Shown here piece after piece: positions 4,927 to 30,845 of a DNA stretch of 32,000 nt. Numbering within the stretch: position 1 is the first letter of the stretch; each line of letters begins with the position of its first letter. The DNA comes from a bacterium (GTDB taxonomy: Bacteria > Babelota > Babeliae > Babelales > RVW-14), in the NCBI GenBank assembly GCA_016699045.1, contig CP064957.1, positions 911,862 to 943,861 on the forward strand. Reading direction: 5' to 3'. Made by a program: the position numbers and the translations under genes. A model generated the notes under the pieces. It worked only from the letters and a program-made list of their open reading frames with translations. It was not told the origin of the DNA and searched no databases.

Positions 4927-5188
4927 GAGAAGTCCCTCATTGAAAAAGAATTAATAAAATCACTATTCAGCTCCAGTATACTTTTATTGAGATAATCTTG
5001 TCAAATGTGAGAAAAATGATTGGATTAATCCTAAAAAAGTGCGCAATATAATCTTTTTTAAATTATGCGTTTTCTTGGCGCAGGGCTACCCAAATAATCA
5101 ATTTGTTGAAATTTTCATAATAATTATAGTATGTACTAAAGCATGTACTAAATAAAAATAAAAGGATGCTAAATATTTATGAGGGTTT

Positions 5189-5596: not shown

Positions 5597-5612
5597 CAAA
5601 TTTAAGGTAGAC

Positions 5613-6446: not shown

Positions 6447-6468
6447 ATAAATTAAGGAGATTTTTAAG

Positions 6469-7062
6469 ATGATGAACTCAATCATTATCAAAAGAACAGT
6501 TGTTTTGTATTTTTTTATTCTGATATTTGCTTCAGTACATTCCCAAATGGATAGCATAAAGCAGCCTGATGCCAAGGGAAGTGTACAAGAGCTGATTGTT
6601 AAAATTAAAGGTATGGTGTGTCCATTTTGTTCTTATAGTTTGGAAAAGGCGCTTGAAGCCTTACCCTATATTCAGAAGGTAAAAAATATTGACTTGCAAA
6701 GTGGTAAGGTTGATTTAATAATTAAGGGAAATACATCAAAATCACTTGGTGAGATTGAAAAAAGCCTTGATGATACGATAAAAAAAGCAACATTTTCTTT
6801 TGATGGCATTGATACAATCTTTGCTACCGGCGTTGTAAAAAAGGATGATTTTGGATTTTTTGCAAATGTGGTAGGATCAAAAATCTATTTGAATGATACT
6901 CATAAAAAGGGCGATACTTTATCCAAAGAAAAAGAATCACGTATGGCACATTTTGTTGATGAGAGCAGTGTGATTGAAATTATAGCACTTATTCATAAGC
7001 ATCCGGATGGTTCATTCGGAGTATCAGATCTAAAAAATATGAAGCCAGCTGTTACAGAATAG
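6469..7062 (+). CDS. Periplasmic heavy-metal-associated (HMA) domain protein with CxxC
   Basis: AAGGAGA Shine-Dalgarno, a signal peptide, and the HMA signature KIKGMVCPFCSYSLEKAL. An extra C-terminal domain of about 100 aa follows. Confidence 0.7.
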   Translation: MMNSIIIKRTVVLYFFILIFASVHSQMDSIKQPDAKGSVQELIVKIKGMVCPFCSYSLEKALEALPYIQKVKNIDLQSGKVDLIIKGNTSKSLGEIEKSLDDTIKKATFSFDGIDTIFATGVVKKDDFGFFANVVGSKIYLNDTHKKGDTLSKEKESRMAHFVDESSVIEIIALIHKHPDGSFGVSDLKNMKPAVTE

Positions 7063-7087
7063 TCTCTTATCGCGGGGAATATATATT

Positions 7088-7618
7088 ATGACAATGTTTC
7101 GAAGGGCTACGTATCTTGTTGCATTATTTACAGCTAATGTTTTATATGCCAAAGAAGAAATTAAAGAAGTCGATATAAAAATTAAAGGGCTGGTTGGATC
7201 AAGTTATATTACTGGGGTAATCAATACAGTAAAAAACATTAAAGAGGTTGAAAAAACTGCTCTTCTTGAGCTAAAAGAGGGATTATTTCGTGTCAACTTA
7301 AAAAGAGGCAATAATCTTTCTTTTGAGGACATTGAGCAGCTTCTTTTTAGGGCAGTAAAAAAGGCCGGATGTGCATGTAATCTTATGCACAATATTACAG
7401 CAACTGGAACCATAAAAGAAAATAATCAAAAACTTGTTTTCCATATCGGAACTACAAATGATACCTTTTATCTTGAAATAGACGAGCATGACCAACGGCT
7501 TAAAGAGGTTGTGCAGGAAGCTTTTAATGATCAAGTAGAGATAAAAATAACAGGGCGGGTCTATGAAAAGCCTGGACAAGTGCTTGTGATTTCTAAGATT
7601 CAGGTGTCTGAAAAATAG
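7088..7618 (+). CDS. HMA-like paralog lacking the metal-binding cysteines
   Basis: Signal peptide. IKIKGLVGSSYITGVINTVKNIKEV aligns with the HMA beta-alpha start of the upstream gene, but CxxC is replaced by GSSY. The C-terminal domain layout is similar. Confidence 0.5.
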   Translation: MTMFRRATYLVALFTANVLYAKEEIKEVDIKIKGLVGSSYITGVINTVKNIKEVEKTALLELKEGLFRVNLKRGNNLSFEDIEQLLFRAVKKAGCACNLMHNITATGTIKENNQKLVFHIGTTNDTFYLEIDEHDQRLKEVVQEAFNDQVEIKITGRVYEKPGQVLVISKIQVSEK

Positions 7619-7705
7619 ATATTTTTTAACTCTATGACTTCTTTTCCATAGGCATTTTGGTAGTGCAAAATATTTTATAAAGCTTAAATTAAAGTAGGTA
7701 AAACT

Positions 7706-8218
7706 ATGAAAAATTATTCTCTGAAGGATTTTTTTCCCATCATTATTATGTATTTGATTATCATCATTTTCGTAATTATTAAACAAATTTTATTGCCAGC
7801 CATTGAAATTTATTCATTTATACAATCAAGTATGCTTGATTTCATGGGATTCTTTTTTATTATTTTTGGTGGTTTCAAAATAATAAAATTAGGGAATTTT
7901 GCAGAAGCATATGCGATGTATGATCTTGTTGCAAAACGTAGTCGATCATATGCCTTACTATACCCATTTATAGAGGTTTCATTGGGGGCTTTGTATTTGT
8001 TGCGCTGGCAGTTATCGTTTGTTAATTTGGTTACTTTAATCTTAATGCTGATAAGTGCTGCAGGGGTCGCGCATGAATTATTGCAAGGGAAAAAAATTAT
8101 GTGTGCATGTCTTGGGACTGTCTTTAAAATTTCCATGACCTACGTAACATTATTTGAAGATCTATTAATGATACTCATGGCTGCAATAATGATTATTTCT
8201 GCATTATTTTTAGACTAA
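7706..8218 (+). CDS. MauE/DoxX-like integral membrane protein
   Basis: 170 aa and 4-5 TM segments. The conserved-looking MCACLGTVF motif resembles the C-x-C-[FL]-G motif of the MauE family. Confidence 0.5.
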   Translation: MKNYSLKDFFPIIIMYLIIIIFVIIKQILLPAIEIYSFIQSSMLDFMGFFFIIFGGFKIIKLGNFAEAYAMYDLVAKRSRSYALLYPFIEVSLGALYLLRWQLSFVNLVTLILMLISAAGVAHELLQGKKIMCACLGTVFKISMTYVTLFEDLLMILMAAIMIISALFLD

Positions 8219-17904: not shown

Positions 17905-19403
17905 CGTTGCCGTCTCCAGTTTTGGTGATGCCAGTGGTTTGGTGCTGTTGTCATAAGAGGTTTGGCGGAAGGTTGTTCTGCGCTGAGTAATTGCATGACG
18001 GCGGCAATGATAGCATTATTTTCTTGTTCTTCGTGATGTGGGGTTGGTGGTGCGGTCTGTGCAACAAATTGGGTAGCGGTATTAAACATGCCGCTGCTAA
18101 AAAGAGATGAAGATATAGCGTTGCGTAAAAAAGTACGGTTGGTGATGATGCCTTCAATGCCGTAGTGCCGCAATGCTTCGGCCATAAATTGTGTTGCCTG
18201 AACGCGGTTTGCGCCGTAGGTGGTAATTTTTGCAATCATGGGATCAAAGTATGCGGTAATCTCAACGCCCTCAAAAAGATCGTGATCGTGCCGCATAAAC
18301 GGTACGCTTGGTGGCTGAAAATAATGAATGGTGCCGGTTGAGGGCATAAAATTTTCATCAGGGTTTTCTGCGTACAGGCGGCATTCAAGTGCGTGGCCGC
18401 GCTGCGTAATATCGATTTGTTGGTACGGTAGCGCTCTGCCTTGTGCCAACTCAAGTTGGAGTGCTACCAAGTCGATGCCAGTGGTAAGTTCGGTAACCGA
18501 ATGTTCAACTTGTAAGCGCGTATTCATTTCTAAAAAATAACATTGTTCGTCGGCAGTTACTAAAAATTCAACAGTGCCAACGCTGTTGTAGCCAAGTGTT
18601 TGTGCCGCTTTAACTCCCAAGTTGTGAAGCTTGGTGCGCGTGGATTGGCTGACAAATAAGCAGGGTGATTCTTCAATAATTTTTTGGTTGCGGCGTTGGA
18701 TAGAACATTCACGTTCAAAAAGATGGATTGCGTTGGTACCATCGCCAGCAACTTGAACTTCAAGATGCCGCGTGTTTTCAAGGCAGCGCTCAATTAACAG
18801 TTTTGGTGAGCTCGTTAAATTTTTTGCTTGGCGAGCCGCCATTTCCCAGGCTTGTTCAAAGGCTGCTTCATGTGTCACGCGGACCATGCCCTTGCCGCCG
18901 CCGCCCAACGGATCTTTTATCATGAGCGGGTAGCCAAGTGATGCTGCATTTTGATGTGCTTGAGTGCGCGCGTGTGGCGCGTCAAGGTCGGCAAAAAAAC
19001 CTGGCACAATTGGGATGCCTGCCTGCTGCATGGTGTTGCGTGCGTTAATTTTGTCGCCCATCAATGCAATCAGGTCGTGATGCGGGCCAACCCATGTCAG
19101 GCCGTTTTCTTTTACGCGGTGGGCAAAGGAAGCATTTTCTGCTAAAAATCCGTAGCCGGGATGTATCGCGTCAGCTTCTGCGCGATGCGCGATGGAGATT
19201 AATGCTTCTTGGTTCATGTAGGCTGCCCGCCCATTGCCAGGCAATGGAAATGCCTGATCTGCGTTGCGAACAAAGCGCAATAAAATATCTTCTGGTGCGT
19301 AAACGGCAACCGTTGCTATGCCGAGTGCGCGGCAGGTTGCCTGAATGCGCAAGGCAATTTCAGAACGGTTGGCGATAAGGATTTTTTTGATTGGAGTGCG
19401 CAT
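17895..19403 (-). CDS. accC: Biotin carboxylase (acyl-CoA carboxylase alpha-type, ATP-grasp)
   Basis: 502 aa. KILIANRSEIALRI, glycine-rich loop MIKDPLGGGGKGMVRV, and LEMNTRLQVEHSVTE. A C-terminal extension of about 50 aa ends ..HWHHQNWRRQRWH. Confidence 0.9.
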   Translation of the reverse strand: MRTPIKKILIANRSEIALRIQATCRALGIATVAVYAPEDILLRFVRNADQAFPLPGNGRAAYMNQEALISIAHRAEADAIHPGYGFLAENASFAHRVKENGLTWVGPHHDLIALMGDKINARNTMQQAGIPIVPGFFADLDAPHARTQAHQNAASLGYPLMIKDPLGGGGKGMVRVTHEAAFEQAWEMAARQAKNLTSSPKLLIERCLENTRHLEVQVAGDGTNAIHLFERECSIQRRNQKIIEESPCLFVSQSTRTKLHNLGVKAAQTLGYNSVGTVEFLVTADEQCYFLEMNTRLQVEHSVTELTTGIDLVALQLELAQGRALPYQQIDITQRGHALECRLYAENPDENFMPSTGTIHYFQPPSVPFMRHDHDLFEGVEITAYFDPMIAKITTYGANRVQATQFMAEALRHYGIEGIITNRTFLRNAISSSLFSSGMFNTATQFVAQTAPPTPHHEEQENNAIIAAVMQLLSAEQPSAKPLMTTAPNHWHHQNWRRQRWH

Positions 19404-19412
19404 GAGGCACCA

Positions 19413-20321
19413 CTAAATTTTGTGAGCGAGTTCGTTGGCTTCTTCGGGTTCTTCTTCGTGCTGGTAGCTATTGAAAATTTCGTGCTCAAGCTCTTTTTCC
19501 AGTTCTTGAGCTGACGCTAAAATTTCTTTCACATTAATACAGCATTCTTCGTAAGAATCGTCTGATAACTCATCAATCGATTTGGTTGTTGTTTGGTCGG
19601 CGCTGGTGTCTTTTGTAGCTACTTCTTCGTCATACTCTTCGTCTTCTTCGACCGGTTTGTGAGCAAAGAAATTGATGTTGGCCTGAACGCCAGAAATATC
19701 AAAGAATGTTTTGTAGCGGGACAACAAGCGCCAGATTTCAATAAAATCAGCTAGTTCTAACAGCCAAAATGCCATGTTCTGGTTGCTTGGCGTTTGTACA
19801 GAGCTTACATACGATAAAACACGCAAAGTTCCTTCGATAGCAACTTGAAGAGCTTGTGCGATTTTAAACATGCGGAGTTTCTTTTTGGCGTTGCCATACT
19901 TATTTTTGAAGGCGACATTTTCCGCATCAACAATCCGAATAACATCGTACAAAACAGCCAATGTGTACGCGCTGACTTTTGGGATGCGGTTTGGGTAAAC
20001 CAAATCTTTTAACAGATTTGTTTCACGTGTTGTTAGTAGCTCGCACCCAATTTTTGCATCGGTTGCAAGATTAGCAATGCCAGTTGTTAGGCCGATGATA
20101 TTGGTATCTTCATGGTCCATACAGACAATGTACGGAATGTGCGCGACCGTGCGCAACAAGCCAAAAAGTACGGCATATTCAGCAACAAATTTTTTGGGAT
20201 CCTTGATTTTTTCGCTGATCGTTTCTTTAAACGATTTTGATTCTGCAGCGGCAAAGGTATTGGTCGTTGGTGTTGCCAATACAAGAACTACAAAAAATAT
20301 ACCGAAAATTTTTTTGAACAT
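19413..20321 (-). CDS. Hypothetical secreted protein with a strongly acidic C-terminal tail
   Basis: 302 aa. Signal peptide MFKKIFGIFFVVLVLATPTTNTFA. The C-terminal ~90 aa are rich in D/E (EEDEEYDEEV..ELSDDSYEE..HEEEPEEANE). Confidence 0.6.
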   Translation of the reverse strand: MFKKIFGIFFVVLVLATPTTNTFAAAESKSFKETISEKIKDPKKFVAEYAVLFGLLRTVAHIPYIVCMDHEDTNIIGLTTGIANLATDAKIGCELLTTRETNLLKDLVYPNRIPKVSAYTLAVLYDVIRIVDAENVAFKNKYGNAKKKLRMFKIAQALQVAIEGTLRVLSYVSSVQTPSNQNMAFWLLELADFIEIWRLLSRYKTFFDISGVQANINFFAHKPVEEDEEYDEEVATKDTSADQTTTKSIDELSDDSYEECCINVKEILASAQELEKELEHEIFNSYQHEEEPEEANELAHKI

Positions 20322-20375
20322 GATGTCCCTTAAGGCAGTTTTAAACCGATACTTTCTTTGGTATTGCAGCTTAAA

Positions 20376-21593
20376 TCAGTTGCTATGTTTGTCAACATTT
20401 CCTGCCATGGAAAAACATTGCGTCAGTTGATCGGTATGGTACGACAATATCTTGTCGGTTTTGAGCACATGTTCTTTGAAGTCATCAAATTCAAGATCAA
20501 CAAATAAATCGCTCATCATTTTATATAATTCTTTTTGTTTGAAATGATTGCGTACGTGCGGATTTGAGGTGATCAAAGCTGCTTTAGTTTCAAGATTAAG
20601 GCTGTGCCAAATAGTTTCCCATTCGTTTCGTGTAATCATCAAATCGTCTTTGCCATAAATAAAAAGCAGCGAGGTATCTTTAACCATTGGTAGGTAAGGC
20701 TCGATAGAAATATCGCTCAATTGTAAGCCCCAAATATTTTCGGTTAACCATTGCAACGAGTTACTGGCCCATTTCTTTTTCCAGGGCCATTGGTTTGCCC
20801 AGCCACCATTTTGTGGGGAACAGATCATTTTTGGATCGTGCTTAAGTTTTTCAACGATCAACGGCAATGATAGCCAGCAGCCATCAAGAATGATGCGATC
20901 AAAAATGCCTGGGTACATTGCGGCTGTTTTTAAGAAAATAAAGGCGCCGTAGCAAATGCCAAGCCCGCAAACTTTTGTGTAATGTTTTTGCGCTTTAAAA
21001 TGATTAACAACCGTTACCACGTCAATGTCTTCTTCTTGGCCAAGTGAGGCCAATGAGGAATCCATACCAAAGGTATTTTCAGCTAAATTCAGGCTCCAGG
21101 TGCCGATTTTAAATAAGCTAAAATCTTTAATGCCTTGACCGCGAAAATCAAACAGCACAACATCACAATCAAACATATCAACAAATGGTGTCATGTACTC
21201 GCGCGGGTTGGTAAAACCTTCGCCAATAATCATGAGCGTATCGCTACCGCGATCGAAGTAGGTGCAGCCGAGTGGTATGTGGTCGGGCGTTATCAGGGTC
21301 ATGGTTTTGCCAACACTTTTTTGATCTGGCTTTTTTTTGCGGTGGTGCGCGCGTACTTTTTTAGGTTGAGAAATAAATGAGGTGTCAAAATACAATGATT
21401 TGTTTAAGTAATTATTGCGGTAGTTGGCAAAGGCATTAAAAGCATGGGGAAGTTCTTGAGCTTGCTCTTTGCCAAACGCTATTTCGTTGTGATGAGCATA
21501 CGAAAAGGTCGGTTGTGGTTGGTTTGTTGGTGTAAGTTGTGCATTATATAATAAATTAACCATCATGGCAGCTGTTTTAATAAATTTTTTCAT
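20376..21593 (-). CDS. Alpha/beta-hydrolase-fold protein with a Cys at the nucleophile elbow
   Basis: 405 aa. LMIIGEGFTNPREYMTPFVDMFDCDVVLFDFRGQG resembles the strand, oxyanion and R-G-x-G region of alpha/beta hydrolases. The elbow reads VCGLGICYGAF (G-x-C-x-G). Confidence 0.6.
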   Translation of the reverse strand: MKKFIKTAAMMVNLLYNAQLTPTNQPQPTFSYAHHNEIAFGKEQAQELPHAFNAFANYRNNYLNKSLYFDTSFISQPKKVRAHHRKKKPDQKSVGKTMTLITPDHIPLGCTYFDRGSDTLMIIGEGFTNPREYMTPFVDMFDCDVVLFDFRGQGIKDFSLFKIGTWSLNLAENTFGMDSSLASLGQEEDIDVVTVVNHFKAQKHYTKVCGLGICYGAFIFLKTAAMYPGIFDRIILDGCWLSLPLIVEKLKHDPKMICSPQNGGWANQWPWKKKWASNSLQWLTENIWGLQLSDISIEPYLPMVKDTSLLFIYGKDDLMITRNEWETIWHSLNLETKAALITSNPHVRNHFKQKELYKMMSDLFVDLEFDDFKEHVLKTDKILSYHTDQLTQCFSMAGNVDKHSN

Positions 21594-21666: not shown

Positions 21667-22182
21667 CTAACAACCTGGGTAGTTGCCGTAGGTTTGTTGG
21701 GCGTATTCTTCGATTTCTTCATCAGTTGCCAAGAGCCTGAACCAGTCTGCTGCTGGGCCTCTGCTGTCGTAAGGAACAGCAAGATTAGCGCTTAAAAGAA
21801 GATCTGCCAAATTTTGTTCATCAACGTACACTTCTCCGGTAATAGTGCCAGGACTGCCGGCGCGTCTCATTTCGCGCAATTCGATTACTTTTGCATTCTT
21901 CAAAGCTTTTTCGGTAAATGCGCGTGCTTCTTGTGCTTTTTGTTTAACAATATCGTGTCTGCTGTTCATATTAGGGCAATCGATGCCCGCCATTAAGACT
22001 GTTGTTTTTTGCCAAATTTCTGGCCATCCGTTGATGAAAATATCGAACGCTTCACCCTTTTCCACAGAAGTAACTTCTGAAATGATTATATTTCCGTAGT
22101 GACCTTGCTTTGAGGCTGCTGCAAAAAGTGATGAGTTTAAGCTCAAAAACAAAAGTAACATGAGTGCATTAACTATTTTCAT
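21667..22182 (-). CDS. Secreted SNase-like (thermonuclease-fold) protein, catalytic residues substituted
   Basis: 171 aa with a signal peptide. TTVLMAGIDCPNMNS...ARAFTEKALKNAKVIELRE...TITGEVYVDEQNLADLLLSANLAVPY follows the SNase pattern (v.RL.GID.PE...A..f....v.l...GR..a.V...g.n....l..GlA..Y). The Arg and Glu positions read M and N instead. Confidence 0.45.
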   Translation of the reverse strand: MKIVNALMLLLFLSLNSSLFAAASKQGHYGNIIISEVTSVEKGEAFDIFINGWPEIWQKTTVLMAGIDCPNMNSRHDIVKQKAQEARAFTEKALKNAKVIELREMRRAGSPGTITGEVYVDEQNLADLLLSANLAVPYDSRGPAADWFRLLATDEEIEEYAQQTYGNYPGC

Positions 22183-23117
22183 TCTTTTCCTTCTTCGGCG
22201 TATATGCCTAATTCTTTAAGCGCTTCAAAGTATAATCTAACAAAAACTACACCAGAAACAACTTGGCCGGTCCGAAAGCCCAAACCTCTGCCGATAAGTG
22301 TTTTAAAGCCGCTTTCGTTGTACAAAGATTTAAAAACAGAAAACATCGTTGGATAAATTTTTCCGTCAATATCTCCCTGCATCAGAACTTTGGCAGTATT
22401 TGGAGGAGTTGTCAAAAGGGCTGCGCATAGAGCGGCAGTTGCCCCGCCGGCAATGTTGGCGGTCCATTCATAATCAGAGTCATGCAGATCAAAAGCATTA
22501 CTGATGTGTCCGCCCCACTCCGGTACCCAGGCGGTCGTGATAATAGAATTTCTGATAACGGCTGGTCCCAAGCCGCGCCATAAACTTTGTATGCCGTGAT
22601 GATTAACTAAATGTTTAACGATTGTATAAAAGCTCGTTGTTTTTTCGAGCATAGTTTTTTGTAATTCTTGATTGTGGCGGTACATAAAAAGCATTTCGTT
22701 TGGTGTTGCAACGCTGGCAGACAAAGCGCCTGCAGTACTTGCAGCGATAATGCGGTCCTGGTCTGAAAGCGGTTTTCCTTCATGGCGTGTCAGATTGAGC
22801 AAGTAGCGTGTGAAGGCATCGTATGCTACAAACTGAATGCTCATGGTCGGGAAGCGTGCCACTGCGTTGAGGACGTACCCGCGGTACCAGAAGTGTGGGC
22901 TGTTAGAAAATGGGAGGCCACATAAATGTCTGTTTTGCAGGTGCATCCAGCGGAGTTCAGCGCCAACGCCAACGGCTCCAGCTCCGCCAGCAATCAGAAC
23001 ATCCTTGAATAAAGCTAGCTGCTTTTCGGCAATGGATTGGACTGTTTCACAAGCTTCTGGTGCTGCAGCGCGTAAGAAATGGAGAGGGAGTAAGGCGAGT
23101 AACCATACATGTTTCAT
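22179..23117 (-). CDS. Mitochondrial carrier family (SLC25)-like membrane protein
   Basis: 312 aa in three ~100-aa modules.
- Module 1: IAGGAGAVGVG.. and WYRGYVLNAVARFPTMSIQFVAYDAF
- Module 2: STAGALSASVATPNEMLFMYR.. and GIQSLWRGLGPAVIRNSI
- Module 3: IAGGATAALCAALLTTPPNTAKVLMQ.. and GFKTLIGRGLGFRTGQVV..YFEALKE
GGAG Shine-Dalgarno upstream. ATGA overlap with the downstream gene. Confidence 0.6.
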   Translation of the reverse strand: MKHVWLLALLPLHFLRAAAPEACETVQSIAEKQLALFKDVLIAGGAGAVGVGAELRWMHLQNRHLCGLPFSNSPHFWYRGYVLNAVARFPTMSIQFVAYDAFTRYLLNLTRHEGKPLSDQDRIIAASTAGALSASVATPNEMLFMYRHNQELQKTMLEKTTSFYTIVKHLVNHHGIQSLWRGLGPAVIRNSIITTAWVPEWGGHISNAFDLHDSDYEWTANIAGGATAALCAALLTTPPNTAKVLMQGDIDGKIYPTMFSVFKSLYNESGFKTLIGRGLGFRTGQVVSGVVFVRLYFEALKELGIYAEEGKE

Positions 23118-23259
23118 ACGTTTCTCCGTTTTTGTGAGTCAGTTTATGGGAGTAAAATTTAAAAAAATGAGCAGTTTTTTTTAAAATGCTACTTTTTTAG
23201 ACATCGTACACAAATCGTTTTAAACTAATCAATAAAAGCACTTTTTACCCCATCAGTAC

Positions 23260-24506
23260 GTGAGTTTATTAATGAATGCCCAGTTGCTAAAAAAACAGTT
23301 TCCTCTTTTTGCCCACCACCACGACGTGGTGTACCTGGACAATGCCGCTACTTATCAAAAGCCGCAGGTGGTGATTTCTGCCATGAGCACGTTTTATGAA
23401 ACGTCGTATGCCAGTGTGCATCGTGGTTTGTACGAGCTTGGCGAGCAGGCAACTGAGCAGTACGAGGCTGTTCGTGGCCAAATGGCAACGTTTATTAATG
23501 CCGCTCACGAGTCAGAAATTATCTTTACCAAAGGCGCTACTGAAGGTTTTAACATGGTTGCGCACAGCTGGGCAGCGCAGCATGTGAACGCGGGCGATGA
23601 AATTTTATTGTCGCAGGTTGAGCATCACGCCAATTTGTTGCCGTGGCAACGCGTTGCACAAAAGACGGGCGCCAAGCTGCGTTTTGTGCCGCTCGATGTA
23701 GAAACTTTTTTGTTAGAATTTTCAGCTGATTTGATTACGCCAAAAACTAAATTAGTATCGTTAACGTACGATTCCAACGTGCTCGGGCCGGTATGGCCTG
23801 CCGGCATGCTGGAAGACATTATGGCACAAGCCCACGCGGTTGGTGCGCGCGTCATGCTGGACACGACCCAGGCCATGATTCACCACAAAATTGACGTACA
23901 AAAAATGAATGTTGATTTTGTTGCTTTTTCCGGCCACAAGATGGCGGGGCCGACCGGTGTTGGTGTTTTGTATATCAAAAAAGAATTGCATGACGAAGTA
24001 GAGCCGTACCAAGTGGGTGGCTCGATGGTGTACTCAGTTTCTTTCGATAACGCGGTCTGGGCCCAAGTGCCACAAAAATTTGAAGCAGGAACGCCGGCCA
24101 TTGTTGAAGTTATTGGGCTGGGCGCAACCATCGACTTTTTAAATACGAACGTAAACTTTGAGCAACTGGCAAGGCACGAAGCAGCGCTTACGCAACAGCT
24201 GGTAACGGGCTTGCAAGCGCTTGAGGGCGTGCACATTGCCGGCAACACGCAGGCATTGGCAACGCATGGCCACTAGTAAGCTTTTGGGTTGATGGTATTC
24301 ATCCGCACGATTTGGCAACGTATCTTGCCAGCAAAAATATTGCATTGCGAGCCGGGCATCATTGTGCCCAACCGTTGGCAGATTTGTTGGGCGTGGCAGC
24401 GTTACTGCGCGTGAGCTTTGGTATGTACAACACGGCCGAAGATGTTGAGCGGTGTCTTAAACAGGTGGCCGACGGTATACAATTTTTTAGATCACTACAA
24501 CGATAA
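23260..24506 (+). pseudogene. sufS: Cysteine desulfurase SufS, interrupted by a frameshift near 24268-24275
   Basis: Part 1 (23260..24276, frame 1) carries the PLP-Lys motif FSGHKMAGPTGVGVLY and ends ..GNTQALATHGH*. The remaining C-terminal part is in frame 0, open from 24225 to the stop at 24504-24506, and reads ..PLVSFWVDGIHPHDLATYLASKNIALRAGHHCAQPL..VSFGMYNTAEDV. It carries the catalytic Cys. ATG at 23272 is an alternative start. Confidence 0.8.
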
Positions 24507-24511
24507 ACGCT

Positions 24512-24886
24512 ATGAATATGTATCAAGAAGAATTACTCGATCATTTTAAATATCCGCGCAACAATACGCCGCTGGATAACCCAAATTTTTCATCAGACAA
24601 AAAGAATCCTTCCTGTGGGGATGTGATGCACATTGAAGGCATTATTGTTGACAATATCTTGACTAAGGTTGCTTTTCAAGGAACCGGGTGCGTGATTAGT
24701 CAGGCAACAGCCTCCATGCTGACCGAGCAGGTTTTGGGAAAAAAAACTGAACACATTCTTGCGTTAACCGATCAGGATATTCTTGATTTAATTGGCATTG
24801 AGCTGGGGCCGGTGCGTATTAAATGCGCCCTGCTGTCGCTGCAAGCGCTTCAAGAAGGCATAAGTAAATTTCGTCAACAACCATAA
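24512..24886 (+). CDS. sufU: SufU/IscU-like Fe-S scaffold or sulfur-acceptor protein
   Basis: 124 aa with three conserved Cys contexts: NPSCGDVM, GTGCVISQA and RIKCALL. Confidence 0.85.
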   Translation: MNMYQEELLDHFKYPRNNTPLDNPNFSSDKKNPSCGDVMHIEGIIVDNILTKVAFQGTGCVISQATASMLTEQVLGKKTEHILALTDQDILDLIGIELGPVRIKCALLSLQALQEGISKFRQQP

Positions 24887-24896
24887 AGGAATTATT

Positions 24897-26420
24897 ATGA
24901 TTACGATCAAGCCAACGTCTCAAAACTTATGGGACATTGTCGCAGAAAGTTATATTTTTTTCGTTAATGAATCGTTAGATAGTGAATCTGACAATGCGAA
25001 TTTTACCAAAATTCAAGAGTACTATCCGCAGGTCAAAGCCGTTCTTAAAAAGCATAATTTTGAAGGCAAACAAGGCCAATCATACATTTTGACCGCTATG
25101 CAAAATGACCGCCTCGTAGAATTTATATTTGTCGGTCTTGGCAAGCACACCAAGAGCTGGGATGTTGAATTAGAAAAGTTACGTCGCGCCATTGGCAACG
25201 TTACCTTATTGCTCAAAAAACATGGTCTGCGTTCTGCTGCAATTGGCTTGCCTGAAGAAAAACCGTACAACATCAGCCGTGCTGAATTACTCAAGCAACT
25301 GATCGTGACCATGCACATGGCCAACTACGAATTTAATGTTTACAAAACCAAAGAGCCAAAAAAAGATTGGCAATGCGACGTCAGTTTTGTTGTTGATGCC
25401 AGCGAAGAAAAAGCATTGGCTGCAAGTGCAAACCACGGCATGATTATGGGCGAAGCGATCAACCAAGCGCGCCACTGGGCAGATTTGCCAGCCAATATTA
25501 TGACGCCAACCGCTTTGGCAGACGAAGCGGAAAAAATCGCCAAGCAGTACAAATTAAAATGCACTATCTTTGGCCGTGATGAAGCTGAAAAGCTTGGTAT
25601 GGGCGCCTTCTTGGCGGTTGATGCCGGTTCAGATCAACCAGGTAAATTTGTTATTCTTGAACACAAAGCGGCGTCAAAAGATGCACAAACGATTGCGTTG
25701 CTGGGCAAGGGCGTGATGTTTGATACCGGCGGTATTAGTTTGAAGCAATCAGATTTTATGACCGGCATGAAGTACGATATGTCCGGTGCGGCTGCAGTTA
25801 TCGCGTCCATGAAAATTTTTGCGCAGCTTAATCCCGATATTAATGTGGTTGGCATTACGCCGCTGGTTGAAAATATGCCAAGCGGCAAAGCTGCTCGCCA
25901 AGACGATATTGTGACTGCCATGAACGGCAAATCGATTGAAATTAAGAGCACCGATGCTGAAGGTCGTTTGATTCTTTCAGACGCCATGTGCTATGCCGAA
26001 AAGTTCCACAAGCCTGATATCATGATTGATATTGCCACGTTGACCGGCGCTTGTTTGTATGCGCTTGGTTACTTTTATTCAGGCCTGATGACGCAGGACG
26101 AAGAGCTGATGAAAGTGTTGCCAGAGATTGGTAAAAAGACTGGCGATCGCATTTGGCCGTTGCCACTTGATGACGATTTTAAAGCCGCCAACAATTCGCT
26201 TGTTGCCGATTTGGCCAACGTTGGTTGCCGTAGCTACAAAGCGGGCACTATCACGGCCGGCTGCTTTTTAAGCGAGTTTGTTGATAAAGCGCGCTGGGCG
26301 CATATTGATATTGCGGGGACCGCTGATGGCGTGCCGGGCAATATTAGCTACCTGGGCAAAACGTCGGCCGGTGCTGGGATCAGGCTTCTCGTTGATTTTG
26401 TTTTGAATTTTAAACATTAG
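24897..26420 (+). CDS. pepA: Leucyl aminopeptidase (M17)
   Basis: 507 aa. LLGKGVMFDTGGISLK, MKYDMSGAA, and KSTDAEGRLILSD (the NTDAEGRL signature). Confidence 0.9.
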   Translation: MITIKPTSQNLWDIVAESYIFFVNESLDSESDNANFTKIQEYYPQVKAVLKKHNFEGKQGQSYILTAMQNDRLVEFIFVGLGKHTKSWDVELEKLRRAIGNVTLLLKKHGLRSAAIGLPEEKPYNISRAELLKQLIVTMHMANYEFNVYKTKEPKKDWQCDVSFVVDASEEKALAASANHGMIMGEAINQARHWADLPANIMTPTALADEAEKIAKQYKLKCTIFGRDEAEKLGMGAFLAVDAGSDQPGKFVILEHKAASKDAQTIALLGKGVMFDTGGISLKQSDFMTGMKYDMSGAAAVIASMKIFAQLNPDINVVGITPLVENMPSGKAARQDDIVTAMNGKSIEIKSTDAEGRLILSDAMCYAEKFHKPDIMIDIATLTGACLYALGYFYSGLMTQDEELMKVLPEIGKKTGDRIWPLPLDDDFKAANNSLVADLANVGCRSYKAGTITAGCFLSEFVDKARWAHIDIAGTADGVPGNISYLGKTSAGAGIRLLVDFVLNFKH

Positions 26421-26435
26421 TTTTTTTAAAATAAA

Positions 26436-26497
26436 AATTGAGCCTTTTGTTTCATTTGTTTTATTGCAAAACGTGAGACAAGGCTCAATTTTTTTTA
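26436..26497 (+). terminator. Rho-independent terminator after pepA
   Basis: AATTGAGCCTT (26436-26446) pairs with AAGGCTCAATT (26480-26490). Extended imperfect inner pairing includes GTTTT/AAAAC. A T-run follows at 26489-26496. Confidence 0.7.
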
Positions 26498-26576
26498 TTG
26501 TATGAATTTATAACGAATGATTTTGATAAAAAAATAGCCCCAGCAAGTCTAAGCCTACCAGAGCGAATTTGAAAAG

Positions 26577-26652
26577 TGGCTCCCCGAGTAGGACTCGAAC
26601 CTACGACCTAACGATTAACAGTCGTGTGCTCTACCAACTGAGCTATCGGGGA
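26577..26652 (-). tRNA. tRNA-Asn (anticodon GUU)
   Basis: Reverse complement is TCCCCGATAGCTCAGTTGGTAGAGCACACGACTGTTAATCGTTAGGTCGTAGGTTCGAGTCCTACTCGGGGAGCCA. Acceptor TCCCCGA/TCGGGGA, anticodon loop CTGTTAA, T arm GTAGG-TTCGAGT-CCTAC. Confidence 0.9.
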
Positions 26653-26695
26653 GCGAATTTCAATGGATGGGCCAGGCATTTCCTTCAGAAATGAC

Positions 26696-26772
26696 TGGTG
26701 GGCGAAGCGGGATTCGAACCTGCGACCCCCTGCTTGTAAGGCAGATGCTCTAACCAACTGAGCTATTCGCCC
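26696..26772 (-). tRNA. tRNA-Val (anticodon UAC)
   Basis: Reverse complement is GGGCGAATAGCTCAGTTGGTTAGAGCATCTGCCTTACAAGCAGGGGGTCGCAGGTTCGAATCCCGCTTCGCCCACCA. Anticodon loop CTTACAA. All stems pair. Confidence 0.92.
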
Positions 26773-26833
26773 GGCACTGTTGTCCTCCGAAGCTATCAGA
26801 GCGTAGGAGGAGTTGTAAAAAACAGATGAACAG

Positions 26834-26862
26834 AGATTAAAGTAAAAACGTGAGCAAGTCAA
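26834..26862 (-). promoter_or_regulatory. Putative promoter of the tRNA-Val/tRNA-Asn unit
   Basis: On the minus strand, TTGACT (26862-26857), a 17-nt spacer, then TAATCT (26839-26834). It lies about 60 nt upstream of the tRNA-Val 5' end. Confidence 0.35.
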
Positions 26863-26974
26863 AGTTTTTTTACCCTTTTTACTTCAATTTTTGAGGTCGA
26901 TTTAAAAACATCTTCTGACAGAGCTTTTGTCAGTAAGTGTTTTTGGTAAAAACGTATATCGCTTTTAGCGGCTA

Positions 26975-27229
26975 TCAACAAGCCTGGTTGGCTATTTCTT
27001 CCTGCTTGATAACGTGTGCCATTTTAAAGTGCGCTACTGTTTTTGCGTCAGCTATAACTACTTTGCGGCTAGGTTTGCCAGAGTGGTCAAAATACAGCCA
27101 CAATTCTATCGAATTAAATTTACTTTTTTCCAGTTCAAATTTTTCCCACAAGAATGGATTTTTTAAATCTTTTTCAATGTCAAACTCCTCCACGTGGTCA
27201 AATAATGGCCCGACTATCATACGCTGCAT
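26975..27229 (-). CDS. Hypothetical protein (84 aa), possibly the intact tail of a decayed larger gene
   Basis: Balanced charged composition (MQRMIVGPLFDHVEEFDIEKDLKNPFLWEKFELEKSKF..). The overlapping plus-strand ORF 26937..27410 is Ser/Leu-rich and looks like an antisense shadow. Confidence 0.4.
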   Translation of the reverse strand: MQRMIVGPLFDHVEEFDIEKDLKNPFLWEKFELEKSKFNSIELWLYFDHSGKPSRKVVIADAKTVAHFKMAHVIKQEEIANQAC

Positions 27230-27475
27230 TATGAAGAGCCCTGGTTCTTCTTGTTTTATGGCTCTGACTTTTGGGATATTGTTTCAGGGCCATCTTCCGG
27301 CGATATCTCGAGGTTGTAAGTCATCTTTAAATCTTTCTAATTTGAATAATTTGACACGTTTGTTTGGTTGTAAATTTCCACTTTTCAAGCAAGATCTTAA
27401 TTTGTTTTGATAGATTTTACAATGTTTAAATTGGTTTTGTTTGTATTTTTTATCTATTGATCAATCTTGTAAATG

Positions 27476-27504
27476 TTGACATTGGTTTGTATGTATGTTA
27501 ATGT
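27476..27504 (+). promoter_or_regulatory. Possible promoter upstream of the GIY-YIG gene
   Basis: TTGACA (27476-27481), a 17-nt spacer, then TAATGT (27499-27504). The -10 is weak (3 of 6). Confidence 0.3.
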
Positions 27505-27557
27505 GTTACTCGTTGATACGATTTATTTTACGCTTAAAATGTTGCCAGAGAAACGTT

Positions 27558-28154
27558 ATGACTAAGGTTATTATTTATCAAGCAAGGGCCATAAACCAAG
27601 GTTGTATCTACATTTACGTGGGGAAAACCGAGAGAACATTGGACGAAAGAAGACAAGAGCATGAGGACAAGGCACTGCGTAATAGTCCCCGTTCTTTTCC
27701 TCAGGCGATGAGAAAAATTCCTCTTGATTGTTGGGAGTGGCAAGAGTTGTTTGTCTGTGAGGCTGCTGATGCAACAGAACAAGAAAATCAAATGATTATG
27801 AAGTATCGCATTTATGAAAAAAATAATCCTAATTTCATTGTTTTAAATGATACGCCTGGTAAAAACATAAATCAGCCTGACAAAAATGATGAACCATATT
27901 ATGGCATATCGAAGGCTTGTAGACAAAAAAATTATGCTCCTAGCGAACGGGGCAAAAGATTTGCAATGATTTCAGGAAAACTTAAACCCGTAAAAAATCT
28001 TAAAACGGGGCAGGAATATCAAAGTATTGCTGAAGCAGAAAAAATTGATAAAAATTCAAAGTTATTAATAAAAAGATCTTGCGAAACGGGAAGAATGCTC
28101 AATGATGGGACTCGTTATGCGTATATCGATTTAGATATGGTGATTCAAAACTAA
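27558..28154 (+). CDS. GIY-YIG endonuclease-like protein, N-terminal part (catalytic domain plus first DNA-binding module)
   Basis: ATG at 27558 gives MTKVIIYQARAINQGCIYIYVGKTERTLDERRQEHE, matching GIY..YVG..R..EH..E and later EQENQMI (the Asn region). The first NUMOD-like module is KPVKNLKTGQEYQSIAEAEKIDKNSKLLIKRSCETGRMLNDGTRYAYID. The stop at 28152-28154 appears to result from a frameshift. Confidence 0.7.
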   Translation: MTKVIIYQARAINQGCIYIYVGKTERTLDERRQEHEDKALRNSPRSFPQAMRKIPLDCWEWQELFVCEAADATEQENQMIMKYRIYEKNNPNFIVLNDTPGKNINQPDKNDEPYYGISKACRQKNYAPSERGKRFAMISGKLKPVKNLKTGQEYQSIAEAEKIDKNSKLLIKRSCETGRMLNDGTRYAYIDLDMVIQN

Positions 28155-28492
28155 AAGAAGGACATCAATTAGATCTTTATGTTGGTAAAAGGGCGCGAAA
28201 AATCAAAGAACTAGTTAGTAGTCGCGTTTTTAATAATGCAACAGAAGCTGCTAATGAATATGATGTATCAGTTGGTATTATTCAAGCTGGGGCTATTGGA
28301 ACCCATGGCATAATAAAGAAGAAGTACGTTTTTTGCTATTTAAACGAAGACGGCACCGAGGCAAGAATCTCGGTTCATGACAAAGCTTTAGAAAAAATCA
28401 ACAGTAGAAATCATCGTAAATACGTTGTTTGGCCTGTTGATTTTTTCTACGCAGAAGCTCTTAAAGAAAAACAAGTTGGATATTTTAAAAGT

Positions 28493-29614
28493 ATGCGTGA
28501 TCTATGCGAAGAATTAAATATCAAAAATAAGACTCATGTTAAGGCAGTATGTGATGGGAAGCGATCGCACGTAGAAACTTACCGGGTTGCTTATTACGAC
28601 AATGAAAAAAATGAGCCTAGCCTAACAAAGCGGCATAATGAAAAATCTTCAAAAATTATCAGAAAAATACAATGTTTGGATGATAAAGAAATTTTTGACA
28701 ATTGCACAGAGGCTGGTAAAAAATATTCGATTGAGCCAGGTCAAATTGGATTATGTGCTCGAGGGGTATTAAAGTCAGCGCGATGGGAAAATCCGATAAC
28801 TGGCAAGAAGGAGCGATTACGTTTTGCTTATCTTGATGCTTCCGGGAAGCCAATAATAAAACAAAAACATAATGAATCATTGATGCAGAGACAAGGTATT
28901 CCAAAAATTGAGCTGACTAATCCTGCAACAATCGAGTATTTAGGTAAGAGTACCTTTGATTCTTTGGCAGAGTATTGTCGTGAAATGGGAGTTCCGGCGA
29001 AAAGAGCACGGAAATACCTAAACAATTTGATTGATAAAGATCAAATGGATGGTTGCGAATTTGTTGAAGTTGGAACTAGAGCTGTGCGTCGCAAAGAAAA
29101 AGACATGAAGAAAAAAATCAGTACTATTTTAGAGTGGCTTTGGTGGTTTATTGATTTGTTTAACAATAGGAACGCTACTAAGTCTCAGCGTTTTGAGATG
29201 AATATCAAAAATCATGGAACAATTATTGGAGATATCAATATCGGTAATAATAACGATCAAAATGTGGGATCATTAACTACGTTGAAAGATATGAAGTCGT
29301 TTGCCGCCTTGGAGCATGCCTTTTCTGAAGCTAGCGGTATTTGGATCATTGGCAGTATTTGTGATATTAAGCGCGCCAGTCAAAAGGATGCGGGTTGTTG
29401 TACGTCGATCAAAAATATTTTTAAGAACTTAACAATAAATATGGAATATGCTCAGTTAGCTAAGTTTCAAGCTATTGAAGAAAGTGCTTTGGTGGCAATC
29501 AAAAACCTTAGTGAATCTCATGATCAAGAGTCTAGAGATCATTTTTTAAAAACTTGGCGTGATCTTGCTTCGCAAATTCAGAATTTAAAAAGCGACCTTG
29601 CTATAGTTTTATAG
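28493..29614 (+). CDS. Continuation of the GIY-YIG/NUMOD-like gene (frame open from 28106) plus a C-terminal domain of unknown function
   Basis: The frame is open upstream to 28106 and encodes further modules (..IKELVSSRVFNNATEAANEYDVSVGIIQAGAIG..YVFCY; ..GYFKSMRDLCEELNIKNKTHVKAVCDGKRSHVETYRVAYYD; ..IQCLDDKEIFDNCTEAGKKYSIEPGQIGLCARGV..LRFAYLD; ..YLGKSTFDSLAEYCREMGVPAKRARKYL). From about 29100 there is a hydrophobic segment (ISTILEWLWWFIDLF) followed by about 170 aa with no recognisable motif. Confidence 0.65.
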   Translation: MRDLCEELNIKNKTHVKAVCDGKRSHVETYRVAYYDNEKNEPSLTKRHNEKSSKIIRKIQCLDDKEIFDNCTEAGKKYSIEPGQIGLCARGVLKSARWENPITGKKERLRFAYLDASGKPIIKQKHNESLMQRQGIPKIELTNPATIEYLGKSTFDSLAEYCREMGVPAKRARKYLNNLIDKDQMDGCEFVEVGTRAVRRKEKDMKKKISTILEWLWWFIDLFNNRNATKSQRFEMNIKNHGTIIGDINIGNNNDQNVGSLTTLKDMKSFAALEHAFSEASGIWIIGSICDIKRASQKDAGCCTSIKNIFKNLTINMEYAQLAKFQAIEESALVAIKNLSESHDQESRDHFLKTWRDLASQIQNLKSDLAIVL

Positions 29615-29769
29615 TGTTATAAAAAGGCCTATTCTTATTTTATTGGTGAAGGCATCACATGAACTTAATCGTTAATCAGTCGGCACAGCCTTTGCCTGTT
29701 AAATTTGCCATAAAATTCAGTCTGAATACGTATCATTTATAGAGCGCTTTGAACTGATCTATACCCCAT

Positions 29770-29798
29770 TTGAGCTGCTGCCTGCCATGTGTTATAAT
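29770..29798 (+). promoter_or_regulatory. Strong sigma70-type promoter with an extended -10
   Basis: TTGAGC (29770-29775), a 17-nt spacer ending in TGT, then TATAAT (29793-29798). It lies 44 nt upstream of the ATG at 29842, which is preceded by AAGAAGGA. Confidence 0.55.
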
Positions 29799-29841
29799 CA
29801 TGAGCTATCGTGATTTATAATTTTTAAAGAAGGATTTTTAA

Positions 29842-30845
29842 ATGAATATCATAACCAAGCTTTTATTAAGTGTGACACTTATTCTTTCAGCGACCATTAC
29901 AGAATCAAAATGTACAGCAGAACTCAATGACAAAAAAACTGCTAACGCTGAATTAGACAAGGCTTTTATTTCAGCCGTAAAAAAACATAATCTAGAAGAA
30001 ATGCAAAAGCTCATGAAAGCAGGAGCTGATGTTAATACACCAATTCCTTACGTACACACTTCGGGCGATTGTGACTGGAACGTTGAAGCTACGCCCCTCA
30101 TGTTTGCTATAAAAGATTGCCACTTAGAGATGGCAAAGATGCTCTTGCAAGTAAAAAACAAACTTTCTACCAGTATTAATTCAGCTCTGTGTGCAGCAGT
30201 AGAAGAAGGCTGCTTAGACATAGTGGAAGAACTTATAAAAGAGGGGCTGATGTTAACTATATCTCTGGCAACCCTTGGGGAGATACGCCATTAATGTTAG
30301 CCATAAGAAAAGGAAGAAGCGGCGCGCACTATTTCTTTTAAAAGCAGGCGCTCATGTTAATTATGTTAACAAAGAGGGCGATACGGCTCTTACGATAGCT
30401 CAAAGAGGATGTAGCCTTAGGACGTTGCTAGAATTTTTAAAATGCCTTGAAACGACTTCAGGCTCATTTTTGGTTTGGAGAGACCGATTAACTATGCTGA
30501 TAAAGGTGGCAAAACGGTTCTTATGAGAGCTGTAGAACAGAATAACCTCCTATGGTGCAAGAACTTTTACAATGCCCTGAAGTGACGACAGGCTCATTTT
30601 GTGGGTTTGGAACAAAGTCAATTAATTATGCTGATAAGGATGGCAATACTGCTCTTATAAGAGCTATACAAAAGGTACAGACTTCTTACGTTGCTGGTGA
30701 CAAGAGAGGGCATAAGGCTTGTGTAGATAGCCAGAAAATTATAGACATACTTTTAAATACTCCGGGCATTGACCCTCACCATGCTAACAAAAAAGGTGAG
30801 ACAGCTATAGCCTTACTTGAAAAATTAAATAAGAAATATAACTAA
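29842..30845 (+). pseudogene. Ankyrin-repeat protein gene broken by about 4 frameshifts
   Basis: Signal peptide MNIITKLLLSVTLILSATI. The ANK-like sequence continues through five frame segments:
- frame 1 to about 30245
- frame 0: ADVNYISGNPWGDTPLMLAIRKG
- frame 2: ALFLLKAGAHVNYVNKEGDTALTIAQRG
- frame 1: INYADKGGKTVLMRAVEQNN
- frame 0: MVQELLQCPEV..INYADKDGNTALIRAIQ..GETAIALLEKL. Confidence 0.75.

Follow-up and report, generated by a model that had tools for sequence, protein, structure and literature searches.

Mitochondrial carriers are treated as a eukaryotic invention and are hard to produce in bacteria. A carrier-like gene in what looks like the reduced genome of a host-dependent bacterium related to the Babeliales/Dependentiae ('Babelota') raises the question of what the gene product does there. 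The gene lies in a stretch of 32,000 nucleotides of contig CP064957.1, referred to below as the window. It encodes a protein of 312 residues with the fold of mitochondrial carriers and, judging by an overlap of stop and start codons, is translationally coupled to a gene for a 171-residue protein with the fold of staphylococcal nuclease (SNase). A sequence-only reading of the window had compared the carrier with LncP, an effector of Legionella pneumophila that acts in host mitochondria. Our analysis points to a different explanation, to which we assign a probability of about 0.6: the protein would be a derived carrier of the own inner membrane of a reduced, host-dependent, Babeliales-related bacterium, and its neighbour a non-catalytic, exported SNase-fold partner. 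The argument depends on the following features.

22179 to 23117, minus strand: carrier gene (mitochondrial carrier, SLC25/MCF fold), an open reading frame of 312 residues
23061 to 23117, minus strand: putative Sec-type signal or signal-anchor of the carrier (residues 1-19, MKHVWLLALLPLHFLRAAA), assigned by inspection
22779 to 23033, minus strand: carrier repeat 1 (residues 29-113: H1, a very short matrix helix, H2), from the AlphaFold2 model and the family alignment
22494 to 22763, minus strand: carrier repeat 2 (residues 119-208: H3, matrix helix, H4), from the same two sources
22212 to 22469, minus strand: carrier repeat 3 (residues 217-302: H5, matrix helix, H6), from the same two sources
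22179 to 22192, minus strand: coupling junction, in which the carrier TGA (22179-22181) overlaps the SNase ATG (22180-22182)
21667 to 22182, minus strand: SNase-fold gene, catalytically degenerate, an open reading frame of 171 residues
22111 to 22182, minus strand: putative signal peptide of the SNase-fold protein (residues 1-24, MKIVNALMLLLFLSLNSSLFAAAS), assigned by inspection and without a lipobox Cys
21970 to 21996, minus strand: degenerate active-site strand L63-M-A-G-I-D68-C-P-N71 (canonical R-x-x-G-I-D-T-P-E; RVFGIDTPE in ortholog L001)

The 312-residue protein is a mitochondrial carrier

Both open reading frames were present as the sequence-only reading had given them, and all motif strings that it had quoted were found in the translations. 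The Pfam Mito_carr profile (PF00153) matched the 312-residue protein in three stretches with 77.7 bits (cutoff 22.3; E 5.7e-22), which bears out the tripartite carrier architecture that had been proposed. This match and that of the SNase profile to the neighbouring protein are both far above chance. No NCBIfam model matched the carrier. The nearest solved structures by sequence were those of UCP2 (E 4.5e-11) and then UCP1, and repeat 2 gave the best Pfam stretch (residues 121-194) as well as the best match to UCP2.

An AlphaFold2 model was built from a 123-sequence alignment obtained by exhaustive profile search; an earlier model from a 3-sequence alignment had a predicted local distance difference test (pLDDT) score of 36.6 and was discarded. 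The model reached a pLDDT of 87.2 and a predicted template modelling (pTM) score of 0.84, and showed the six-helix threefold bundle that had been expected. Six long helices (residues 29-65, 81-113, 119-148, 183-208, 217-248 and 279-302) have three short ones between them (74-77, 163-174 and 258-269), and residues 1-28 are detached and modelled with low confidence. All 17 Foldseek matches in the PDB at E < 0.005 were carrier-fold proteins, including UCP1 (template modelling (TM) scores 0.68/0.73), both states of ADP/ATP carriers and, from Tetrahymena complex IV, its carrier subunits. In a library of viral structures, the only matches were giant-virus and insect-virus carriers. By profile, predicted fold and structural matches, the 312-residue protein is thus a genuine, highly derived member of the family of mitochondrial carriers.

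The six-helix threefold bundle is shared with UCP1 and UCP2, and the Arg-Asn pair at contact point II and the surrounding part of H4 resemble UCP2. However, identity to the two proteins is 17-18% over the Foldseek structural alignments, and the window's carrier differs from them in that its PX[DE]XX[KR] network is not complete, its first matrix helix is very short and its N-terminus bears a signal segment. The giant-virus carriers (for example those of Yasminevirus, Pithovirus and mimivirids), which were likewise captured by protist parasites, match at the level of the fold (TM 0.6-0.77). They differ from the window's carrier in their viral context and share 12-18% identity with it, and no signal peptide or SNase partner is known for them.

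Signature motifs, gates and predicted substrate site

The register of the signature motifs was taken from the 123-sequence family alignment (A4). The PX[DE]XX[KR] motifs that would provide three matrix salt bridges are incomplete on H1, H3 and H5. H1 carries R56-W-M58-H-L-Q61 where the related family has P...V..K, so that Pro, acid and Lys are all lost, in agreement with the earlier statement that module 1 lacks the Pro-Asp-Lys signature; P56 is kept in the orthologs P0002 and P0005 and is Arg in the window's clade. On H3 the motif reads P139-N-E141-M-L-F144 (related family P-x-E-x-x-M) and has lost its Lys, and on H5 it reads P238-P-N240-T-A-K243 (P-x-D-x-x-K) and has lost its acid. One of the three matrix bridges (E141-K243) is possible in the window's group, compared with two in its relatives. 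Another register for H1, G-A-E54-L-R-W, was rejected, as the family alignment puts the motif at R56...Q61. The further signature box that had been read in all three modules held up in part: the strings are present, but module 1 has R-F-P rather than R-x-x-P, and its Arg position is occupied by Ala87.

The cytoplasmic network is also incomplete, since [FY][DE]XX[KR] is canonical on H6 alone (F297-E298-A-L-K301). H2 has Y99-D100 with its Arg one position off register (R104), and H4 has E200 with no basic partner. Judged by these motifs, the carrier is not a canonical strict exchanger.

In the central cavity, R189 and R282 are near-invariant across the whole family. Contact point I (the G+7 position) has A/S87 in this group, followed by R88, a group-specific residue; the family has M here. 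All three ortholog lineages share R189-N190 as contact point II, for which 105 of 119 family members show R-[DE]. At contact point III, beside the invariant R282, Q285 stands where 90 of 119 have R. The window's group has also replaced the E50 of the family, and its R294 is group-specific. The contact-point rule of Robinson and Kunji from 2006 is said to associate R-[DE] with amino-acid carriers, R-[QHNT] with keto-acid carriers and G-[IVLM] with nucleotide carriers. Because contact point II on H4 is R189-N190 and not G-[IVLM], the site would, under this rule, have moved from that of its relatives towards an anion-type site that is not nucleotide-like.

A signal-like N-terminus and a clade of bacterial carriers

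The signal-like N-terminus that had been noted for the carrier was recovered by inspection, as was one in the SNase-fold protein. MKHVWLLALLPLHFLRAAA has the n/h/c layout of a Sec signal, with a basic n-region, a hydrophobic core of 12 residues and an Ala-rich c-region. The character of this segment, not its sequence, is kept in the orthologs P0002 and P0005 (47-52% identity).

Word-index protein searches returned very few relatives of the carrier, and the family was revealed only by the exhaustive profile search. Among 1.84 billion representatives, this search identified 847 proteins at E ≤ 1e-3, the nearest of which are metagenomic proteins. Just two reached E ≤ 1e-30, which indicates that the ortholog group is rare. 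In a distance tree, the relatives formed two clades. All four contigs sampled from the first clade place the carriers among core bacterial genes, namely those for MurD/MurF-type ligases, FtsW, ThyX, F-ATPase subunits a and c, S21, RbfA, L34, the RNase P protein, trigger factor and aminoacyl-tRNA synthetases. The second clade contains eukaryotic sequences from EukProt and MMETSP (diatom, foraminifer, choanoflagellate), one of them labelled SLC25A21-like. By a relaxed hydropathy test, signal-like N-terminal extensions were present in 37 of the 41 members of the bacterial clade and in 1 of the 24 members of the eukaryotic one. The window's group shares with the bacterial clade both the signal-like extension before H1 and the location among core bacterial genes, and hhalign scored it at 331 against the bacterial and 267 against the eukaryotic clade. 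These scores weakly suggest that the window's carrier is somewhat closer to the signal-bearing bacterial clade than to eukaryotic carriers, and its gene may be a strongly remodelled offshoot of, or a neighbour to, that clade. Compared with the signal-bearing bacterial relatives, the window's group has lost E50, K61, D190, D240 and R285 and gained R88, R294 and the E200 insertion; identities are mostly 20-27% and 31% at most, the Babela sequences lying outside this comparison.

Two observations concern the neighbourhoods of these relatives. In three of the four sampled bacterial contigs (L010, 5830-8900; L011, 572-3165; L012, 7001-9363), the signal-bearing carrier adjoins a MurD/MurF-type gene, and this adjacency may be a conserved neighbourhood of the clade. 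P0009, a carrier homolog that has no signal segment, is encoded in L014 (385-4465), a contig of compact, prokaryote-like organization, between a CitMHS-family and a PHO4 phosphate transporter; it may represent another bacterial carrier lineage, in a transporter cluster.

Carrier-family proteins have already been noted in this phylum, and the locus is therefore not a new kind of system. The paper on Babela massiliensis lists mitochondrial carrier family transporters and reads them as nutrient transporters (Pagnier et al. 2015, PMC4378268); this one sentence was all that our search of the literature on carriers in Dependentiae/Babelota returned. These carriers agree with that of the window in the phylum-level type of their hosts (reduced amoeba or protist parasites), in family and in proposed role, and the signal-bearing bacterial clade described here is probably what that paper refers to. 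Since the organism is Babeliales-like, Babela replaces LncP as the closest precedent. Elsewhere, a 2017 survey reported bacterial carrier homologs in no more than a handful of Chlamydiales, Rickettsiales and Legionellales (PMC5621508).

Genomic context and distribution of the carrier-SNase pair

The window contains five tRNA genes. Its other genes include those for an amino-acid ABC transporter, MgtE, a NUDIX protein, RluA/TruB-type pseudouridine synthases, MerR, PepA, SufS/SufU, a biotin carboxylase with a biotinyl carrier, two ankyrin-repeat proteins and a DDE transposase. Among named relatives of the carrier, the closest (52% identity) is encoded by a metagenome-assembled genome (MAG) of Candidatus Babeliales, which was also the only hit when species-representative genomes were scanned with carrier peptide patterns. 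The window and the MAG contig share their gene order (SufS, carrier, SNase, hydrolase-like, hypothetical, biotin carboxylase, biotin carboxyl carrier protein, MerR, ..., TruB). Within this block the housekeeping proteins are 57-88% identical, and the carrier (53%) and the SNase-fold protein (46%) are its most diverged members.

The pair had been predicted to be conserved as neighbours elsewhere, and this was found in L005-L007 and L001-L004. The orthologs fall into three lineages.

Window's clade (window, L005, L006, L007): carrier 92-99% identical; dead SNase; ATGA overlap (12-nt spacer in L005)
Babeliales MAG lineage (L001-L004): carrier 52% identical; SNase catalytically intact; ATGA overlap
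Third lineage (L009, carrier P0005): carrier about 46% identical; no SNase partner

The pair therefore occurs in two of the three lineages and is neither universal nor tied to a 'dead' nuclease. In L009 (1771-3203), three consecutive genes stand in the place of the SNase gene; they encode small proteins that have MKKL-type signal peptides and match no family. Among the carriers compared, SNase coupling was confined to the window's ortholog group. The coupling is lineage-restricted, and its functional meaning is conjectural.

The carrier is under strong purifying selection over its whole length, with a ratio of nonsynonymous to synonymous substitution rates (dN/dS) of 0.089 against L005, compared with 0.063 for PepA. 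Moreover, the predicted binding-site residues of the carrier are identical whether the neighbouring nuclease is active (P0002), dead (window) or missing (P0005/L009).

Closer examination of the alignment with L006 (window positions 21774-26968) revealed a mosaic. Over 22174-24173, a segment with the carrier, the intergenic region and the greater part of sufS, identity is about 97-100%; in the two flanks it is about 86-93%, and higher only at the tRNA genes near 26.6-26.8 kb. The corresponding synonymous divergence (dS) is 0.02 compared with 0.2-0.4, and one boundary falls exactly at the carrier/SNase junction. L007, an independent assembly, shows the same contrast between carrier and SNase, which suggests strain-level recombination rather than a chimeric contig.

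Coupling to an SNase-fold protein that has lost its catalytic residues

The overlap that had been reported between the two genes can be read directly: the tetranucleotide ATGA at 22179-22182 contains the carrier stop and the SNase start. A Shine-Dalgarno-like AAGGA (22188-22192) lies 5 nt 5' of the SNase ATG, and GGAG lies 8 nt 5' of the carrier ATG. L001 has the identical overlap, with AAAGGAG, and in L005 the two genes do not overlap and are separated by a 12-nt spacer that contains AAGGA.

The SNase assignment was confirmed by the Pfam profile PF00565, which matched the 171-residue protein with 29.6 bits (cutoff 21) over profile positions 1-82 of 107. In NCBIfam, thermonuclease models matched below threshold only. 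The nearest PDB sequences were human SND1 (top, E 0.0024) and staphylococcal nuclease, both marginal. The signal peptide looks typical and is conserved in P0004, L006, L007 and L001. The family match to staphylococcal nuclease and the thermonucleases extends over about 80 residues, and Sec-export would be a trait shared with bacterial thermonucleases. As in the SN domains of SND1 (Tudor-SN), the catalytic residues are replaced; unlike SND1, the window's protein has no Tudor or other domain and carries two clade-specific Cys residues.

The active site was mapped by alignment to mature Staphylococcus aureus nuclease A at 11 residues, of which D19, D21, R35, D40, T41, E43, K84, Y85 and R87 form the main catalytic and Ca-binding set.

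S. aureus nuclease A: D19, D21, R35, D40, T41, E43, K84, Y85, R87, Y113, Y115
Window's SNase-fold protein: D19K, D21E, R35L, D40, T41C, E43N, K84S, Y85P, R87T, Y113, Y115S
L001 ortholog: 10 of the 11 residues kept; only Y115 differs (G)

D40 and Y113 are the only survivors in the window's protein. The Ca-binding D21, D40 and T41 read E, D and C, and the catalytic R35, E43 and R87 read L, N and T, which is not the constellation of an active enzyme. All six of these residues are intact in the L001/L002 ortholog. The loss of the catalytic residues is, by this alignment, real, and it goes beyond what the sequence-only reading had claimed, with D19, D21, R35, E43, K84, Y85 and R87 all substituted. 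That reading had placed the lost Glu of the GIDCPN motif correctly (Glu43 corresponds to Asn71) but had misplaced the Arg, since Arg35 corresponds to Leu63 and not to Met64.

The close relatives of the window's protein are similarly degenerate (those from L006 and L007 are fragments cut by the contig end). As the active site of the L001 ortholog is intact, the degeneracy is specific to the window's clade and derived within it. The combination of a carrier with an inactivated nuclease, which had been singled out, is not a conserved design, since the MAG ortholog keeps 10 of the 11 residues and the carrier in L009 has no SNase neighbour. The dead protein is not decaying but still constrained, as its dN/dS was below 1 in three comparisons (0.26-0.40).

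The two clade-specific Cys residues, C69 (in GIDCP, replacing T41) and C171 (C-terminal, PGC), have no counterpart in the active ortholog. All four members of the dead-SNase clade have C69, and both full-length sequences (window and L005) have C171. A C69-C171 disulfide may tie the C-terminal tail to the former active site.

Where the carrier may act

According to the explanation that we favour, the Sec-type N-terminal segment would direct the carrier into the bacterium's own inner membrane. Its N and C termini would be periplasmic and its positive 'matrix' face cytoplasmic, giving an orientation as in the mitochondrion. In the window's group, the matrix-side segments have a net charge of +8 to +11 and those of the opposite side one of -5 to -8, a strong bias in keeping with insertion N-out, the matrix face pointing into the bacterial cytoplasm. 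In this position the carrier would import or exchange a host-derived solute, which is probably anionic, as R88, R189-N190 and R282 are present and E50 and D190 of the relatives are absent. As E141-K243 is the only possible bridge of the three, the carrier is perhaps loosely gated and uniport-like rather than a strict exchanger. The SNase-fold protein would be translated in coupling with the carrier and carry its own signal peptide for export. Its ancestor would have been an active periplasmic or secreted Ca-dependent nuclease, as still preserved in the Babeliales MAG ortholog, and the window's clade would have retained it as a non-catalytic protein under relaxed purifying selection. A need for imported solutes is consistent with the published TM6/Dependentiae genomes, which are described as lacking nucleotide, amino-acid and lipid synthesis (PMC4776705, PMC6561590).

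Several points weigh against this explanation. The Sec signal of the carrier was judged by inspection and a hydropathy heuristic, and its Ala-Ala-Ala is followed by Pro, so that it is doubtful where cleavage would occur, and the segment may stay uncleaved, as an anchor. A positive-inside bias is common to eukaryotic carriers too, and the observed one is therefore consistent with this explanation without discriminating between readings. Degeneracy of both salt-bridge networks makes a role other than transport conceivable. The proposed substrate class applies the contact-point rule to an alignment-derived register. The placement among bacterial carriers is weak, as the window's group sits on a separate long branch of a tree that is distance-based (neighbour-joining) only and is farther from both clades than these are from each other. 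Lastly, gene content, secretion systems included, was seen for 32 kb of the genome only.

The best-surviving alternative is that the locus scavenges nucleic acid: the exported SNase-fold protein would capture or degrade host nucleic acid, either periplasmically or in the vacuole, the carrier would import the nucleotides, and the dead protein would serve as a binding or hand-over subunit. Over about 50% divergence in protein sequence, the stop/start coupling has been maintained. The L001 partner, which is of the ancestral type, combines an intact active site with a signal peptide, and purifying selection continues to act on the dead protein. As they have no nucleotide biosynthesis, TM6/Dependentiae depend on the uptake of nucleosides or nucleotides (PMC4776705), and nucleotides are carried by many members of the carrier family, LncP included (PMC3252375). 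However, contact point II of the carrier is R189-N190 and not of the nucleotide type, and the carrier remained strongly constrained after the death of the nuclease. As its site is identical beside an active, a dead and an absent nuclease, its function does not appear to track nuclease activity. Furthermore, the nonsynonymous rate of the SNase gene is about four times that of the carrier, and the identity to L006/L007 breaks sharply exactly between the two genes. We therefore regard nucleic-acid scavenging as possible but distinctly less probable than the inner-membrane carrier with a non-catalytic partner.

The view that the carrier is an effector, delivered to the host to insert into the mitochondrial inner membrane and alter metabolite fluxes, is considerably more doubtful. 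LncP (Lpg2905), the one experimentally studied bacterial carrier, does act in this way: as a Dot/Icm substrate it bypasses Sec/YidC, and it assembles in the mitochondria of the host (PMC3252375). Like the window's gene, it is a carrier-family gene of a parasite of protists and presumably eukaryote-derived. During replication, Chromulinavorax, a member of the Dependentiae, is enwrapped by the mitochondrion of its host, and it releases outer-membrane vesicles (PMC6561590). The carrier and SNase genes are the fastest-evolving genes of their syntenic block, as is often the case for host-facing proteins. LncP, however, has no Sec signal and is injected by a type IVB system, whereas the window's carrier has a signal-like N-terminus that is conserved in its orthologs, non-nucleotide contact points and degenerate gates. 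This hydrophobic N-terminal signal would drive the very Sec/YidC insertion that LncP avoids, and in a eukaryote it would target the endoplasmic reticulum rather than mitochondria. A dN/dS of 0.09 is also unlike that of an arms-race protein. A six-helix membrane protein, moreover, is not a substrate of type II secretion. For TM6 genomes, Sec, type II secretion and type IV pilus components have been reported, and no effector-injection system has been described for the phylum (PMC4776705, PMC6561590). The Sec-type N-terminus, the charge bias, the signal-bearing bacterial clade and the literature thus fit an importer of the own inner membrane better than an effector, and the host-mitochondrion frame of the sequence-only reading was abandoned.

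Similarly improbable is a re-use of the carrier fold for a role other than transport, as an MTCH2-like insertase or scramblase or as a structural subunit like those of Tetrahymena complex IV. Such a role would be in keeping with the single remaining matrix bridge, the incomplete cytoplasmic network and the replacement of the H1 kink Pro by Arg in the window's clade, and the Tetrahymena subunits are among the top structural matches. It is less easily reconciled with the near-invariance of the cavity residues R189 and R282 throughout the family, with the two bridges kept by the wider bacterial clade and with the strong purifying selection over the whole carrier.

We also give little credence, slightly less than to the two preceding views, to the idea that the dead SNase was recruited as a periplasmic ligand-capturing partner, forming a 'binding-protein-assisted' mitochondrial-type carrier in the bacterial inner membrane. 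C69 and C171 would then reshape the former nucleotide pocket. If this were true, it would be the first SLC25-fold transporter with a dedicated soluble partner, and a carrier naturally adapted to a bacterial membrane.

Finally, a host gene mis-binned or mis-assembled into a bacterial contig can be excluded for practical purposes, although genes of this family are for the most part found in eukaryotes, overwhelmingly so, and the sequence comes from a metagenome-assembled genome. At least five independent assemblies or runs contain the gene in this same bacterial setting. The gene has a Shine-Dalgarno sequence, lacks introns and overlaps the following gene by 4 nt; its GC content resembles that of its neighbours, and housekeeping bacterial genes flank it.

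Flanking genes and other features of the window

23118 to 23259, no strand: divergent intergenic region between the carrier gene and sufS, the presumed promoter region
20376 to 21593, minus strand: 405-residue alpha/beta-hydrolase-like protein, downstream and kept with the pair in the Babeliales MAG
19413 to 20321, minus strand: 302-residue signal-bearing protein without a family, downstream and kept with the pair in the Babeliales MAG

Consensus promoter and terminator scans gave no excess over shuffled expectation. The promoter is therefore presumed from the gene arrangement, and the boundaries of the operon could not be set. The two downstream genes (19413 to 21593) form the context of the carrier-SNase pair, and from the gene order they are candidates at most for membership in one transcriptional unit with it. 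The 405-residue protein remained below the Pfam cutoffs; its nucleophile elbow reads G-I-C-Y-G, with Cys for Ser, and the same elbow occurs in the Babeliales MAG ortholog (68% identity). The 302-residue protein has a clear signal peptide and an acidic C-terminal tail, matched nothing in Pfam or NCBIfam, and has an ortholog in the same position of the MAG (63%). PADLOC defence models found nothing for the four cluster genes, and the reading of the cluster as a defence system was dropped for this reason.

Upstream, sufS (23260-24506, plus strand) is split into open reading frames of 338 and 64 residues. The break, at about 24276-24283, is a 1-nt deletion relative to the 99%-identical L006 (GGCCAC-TAG versus GGCCACTTAG), in which the gene of 411 residues is intact. 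It is either a real frameshift, making a pseudogene of this Fe-S assembly gene, or an assembly error. A biotin carboxylase (502 residues) and an overlapping biotinyl-carrier-like protein (175 residues) are encoded at 17377-19403 on the minus strand and at 5039-7071 in L001, in a conserved position beside the cluster; the window yielded no carboxyltransferase, and fatty-acid synthesis is reportedly lacking in the phylum. Two stretches have a low GC content (5001-8000, 0.32-0.34; 27001-30000, 0.35-0.36) compared with 0.39-0.48 in most of the rest. They hold familyless open reading frames and genes for HMA-domain, MauE-like, weakly GIY-YIG-like and ankyrin proteins, and may be acquired islands. 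A DDE transposase fragment lies at 10581-11243.

Implications

Dependentiae-like bacteria apparently possess a diversified clade of carriers with Sec-type signals, meant for their own inner membrane, and it is this clade, more than the carrier-SNase pair, that deserves follow-up. The pair nevertheless offers a clean natural comparison of whether the two proteins cooperate, as an active, a dead or no nuclease stands beside an otherwise conserved carrier. If confirmed, the present findings would mean that an organelle transporter fold has been re-domesticated by a bacterium in the orientation that it has in mitochondria. They would also provide models of the carrier family that are naturally expressible in bacteria, and would add an extra class of transporters to the nutrient-piracy toolkit of an almost uncultured phylum.

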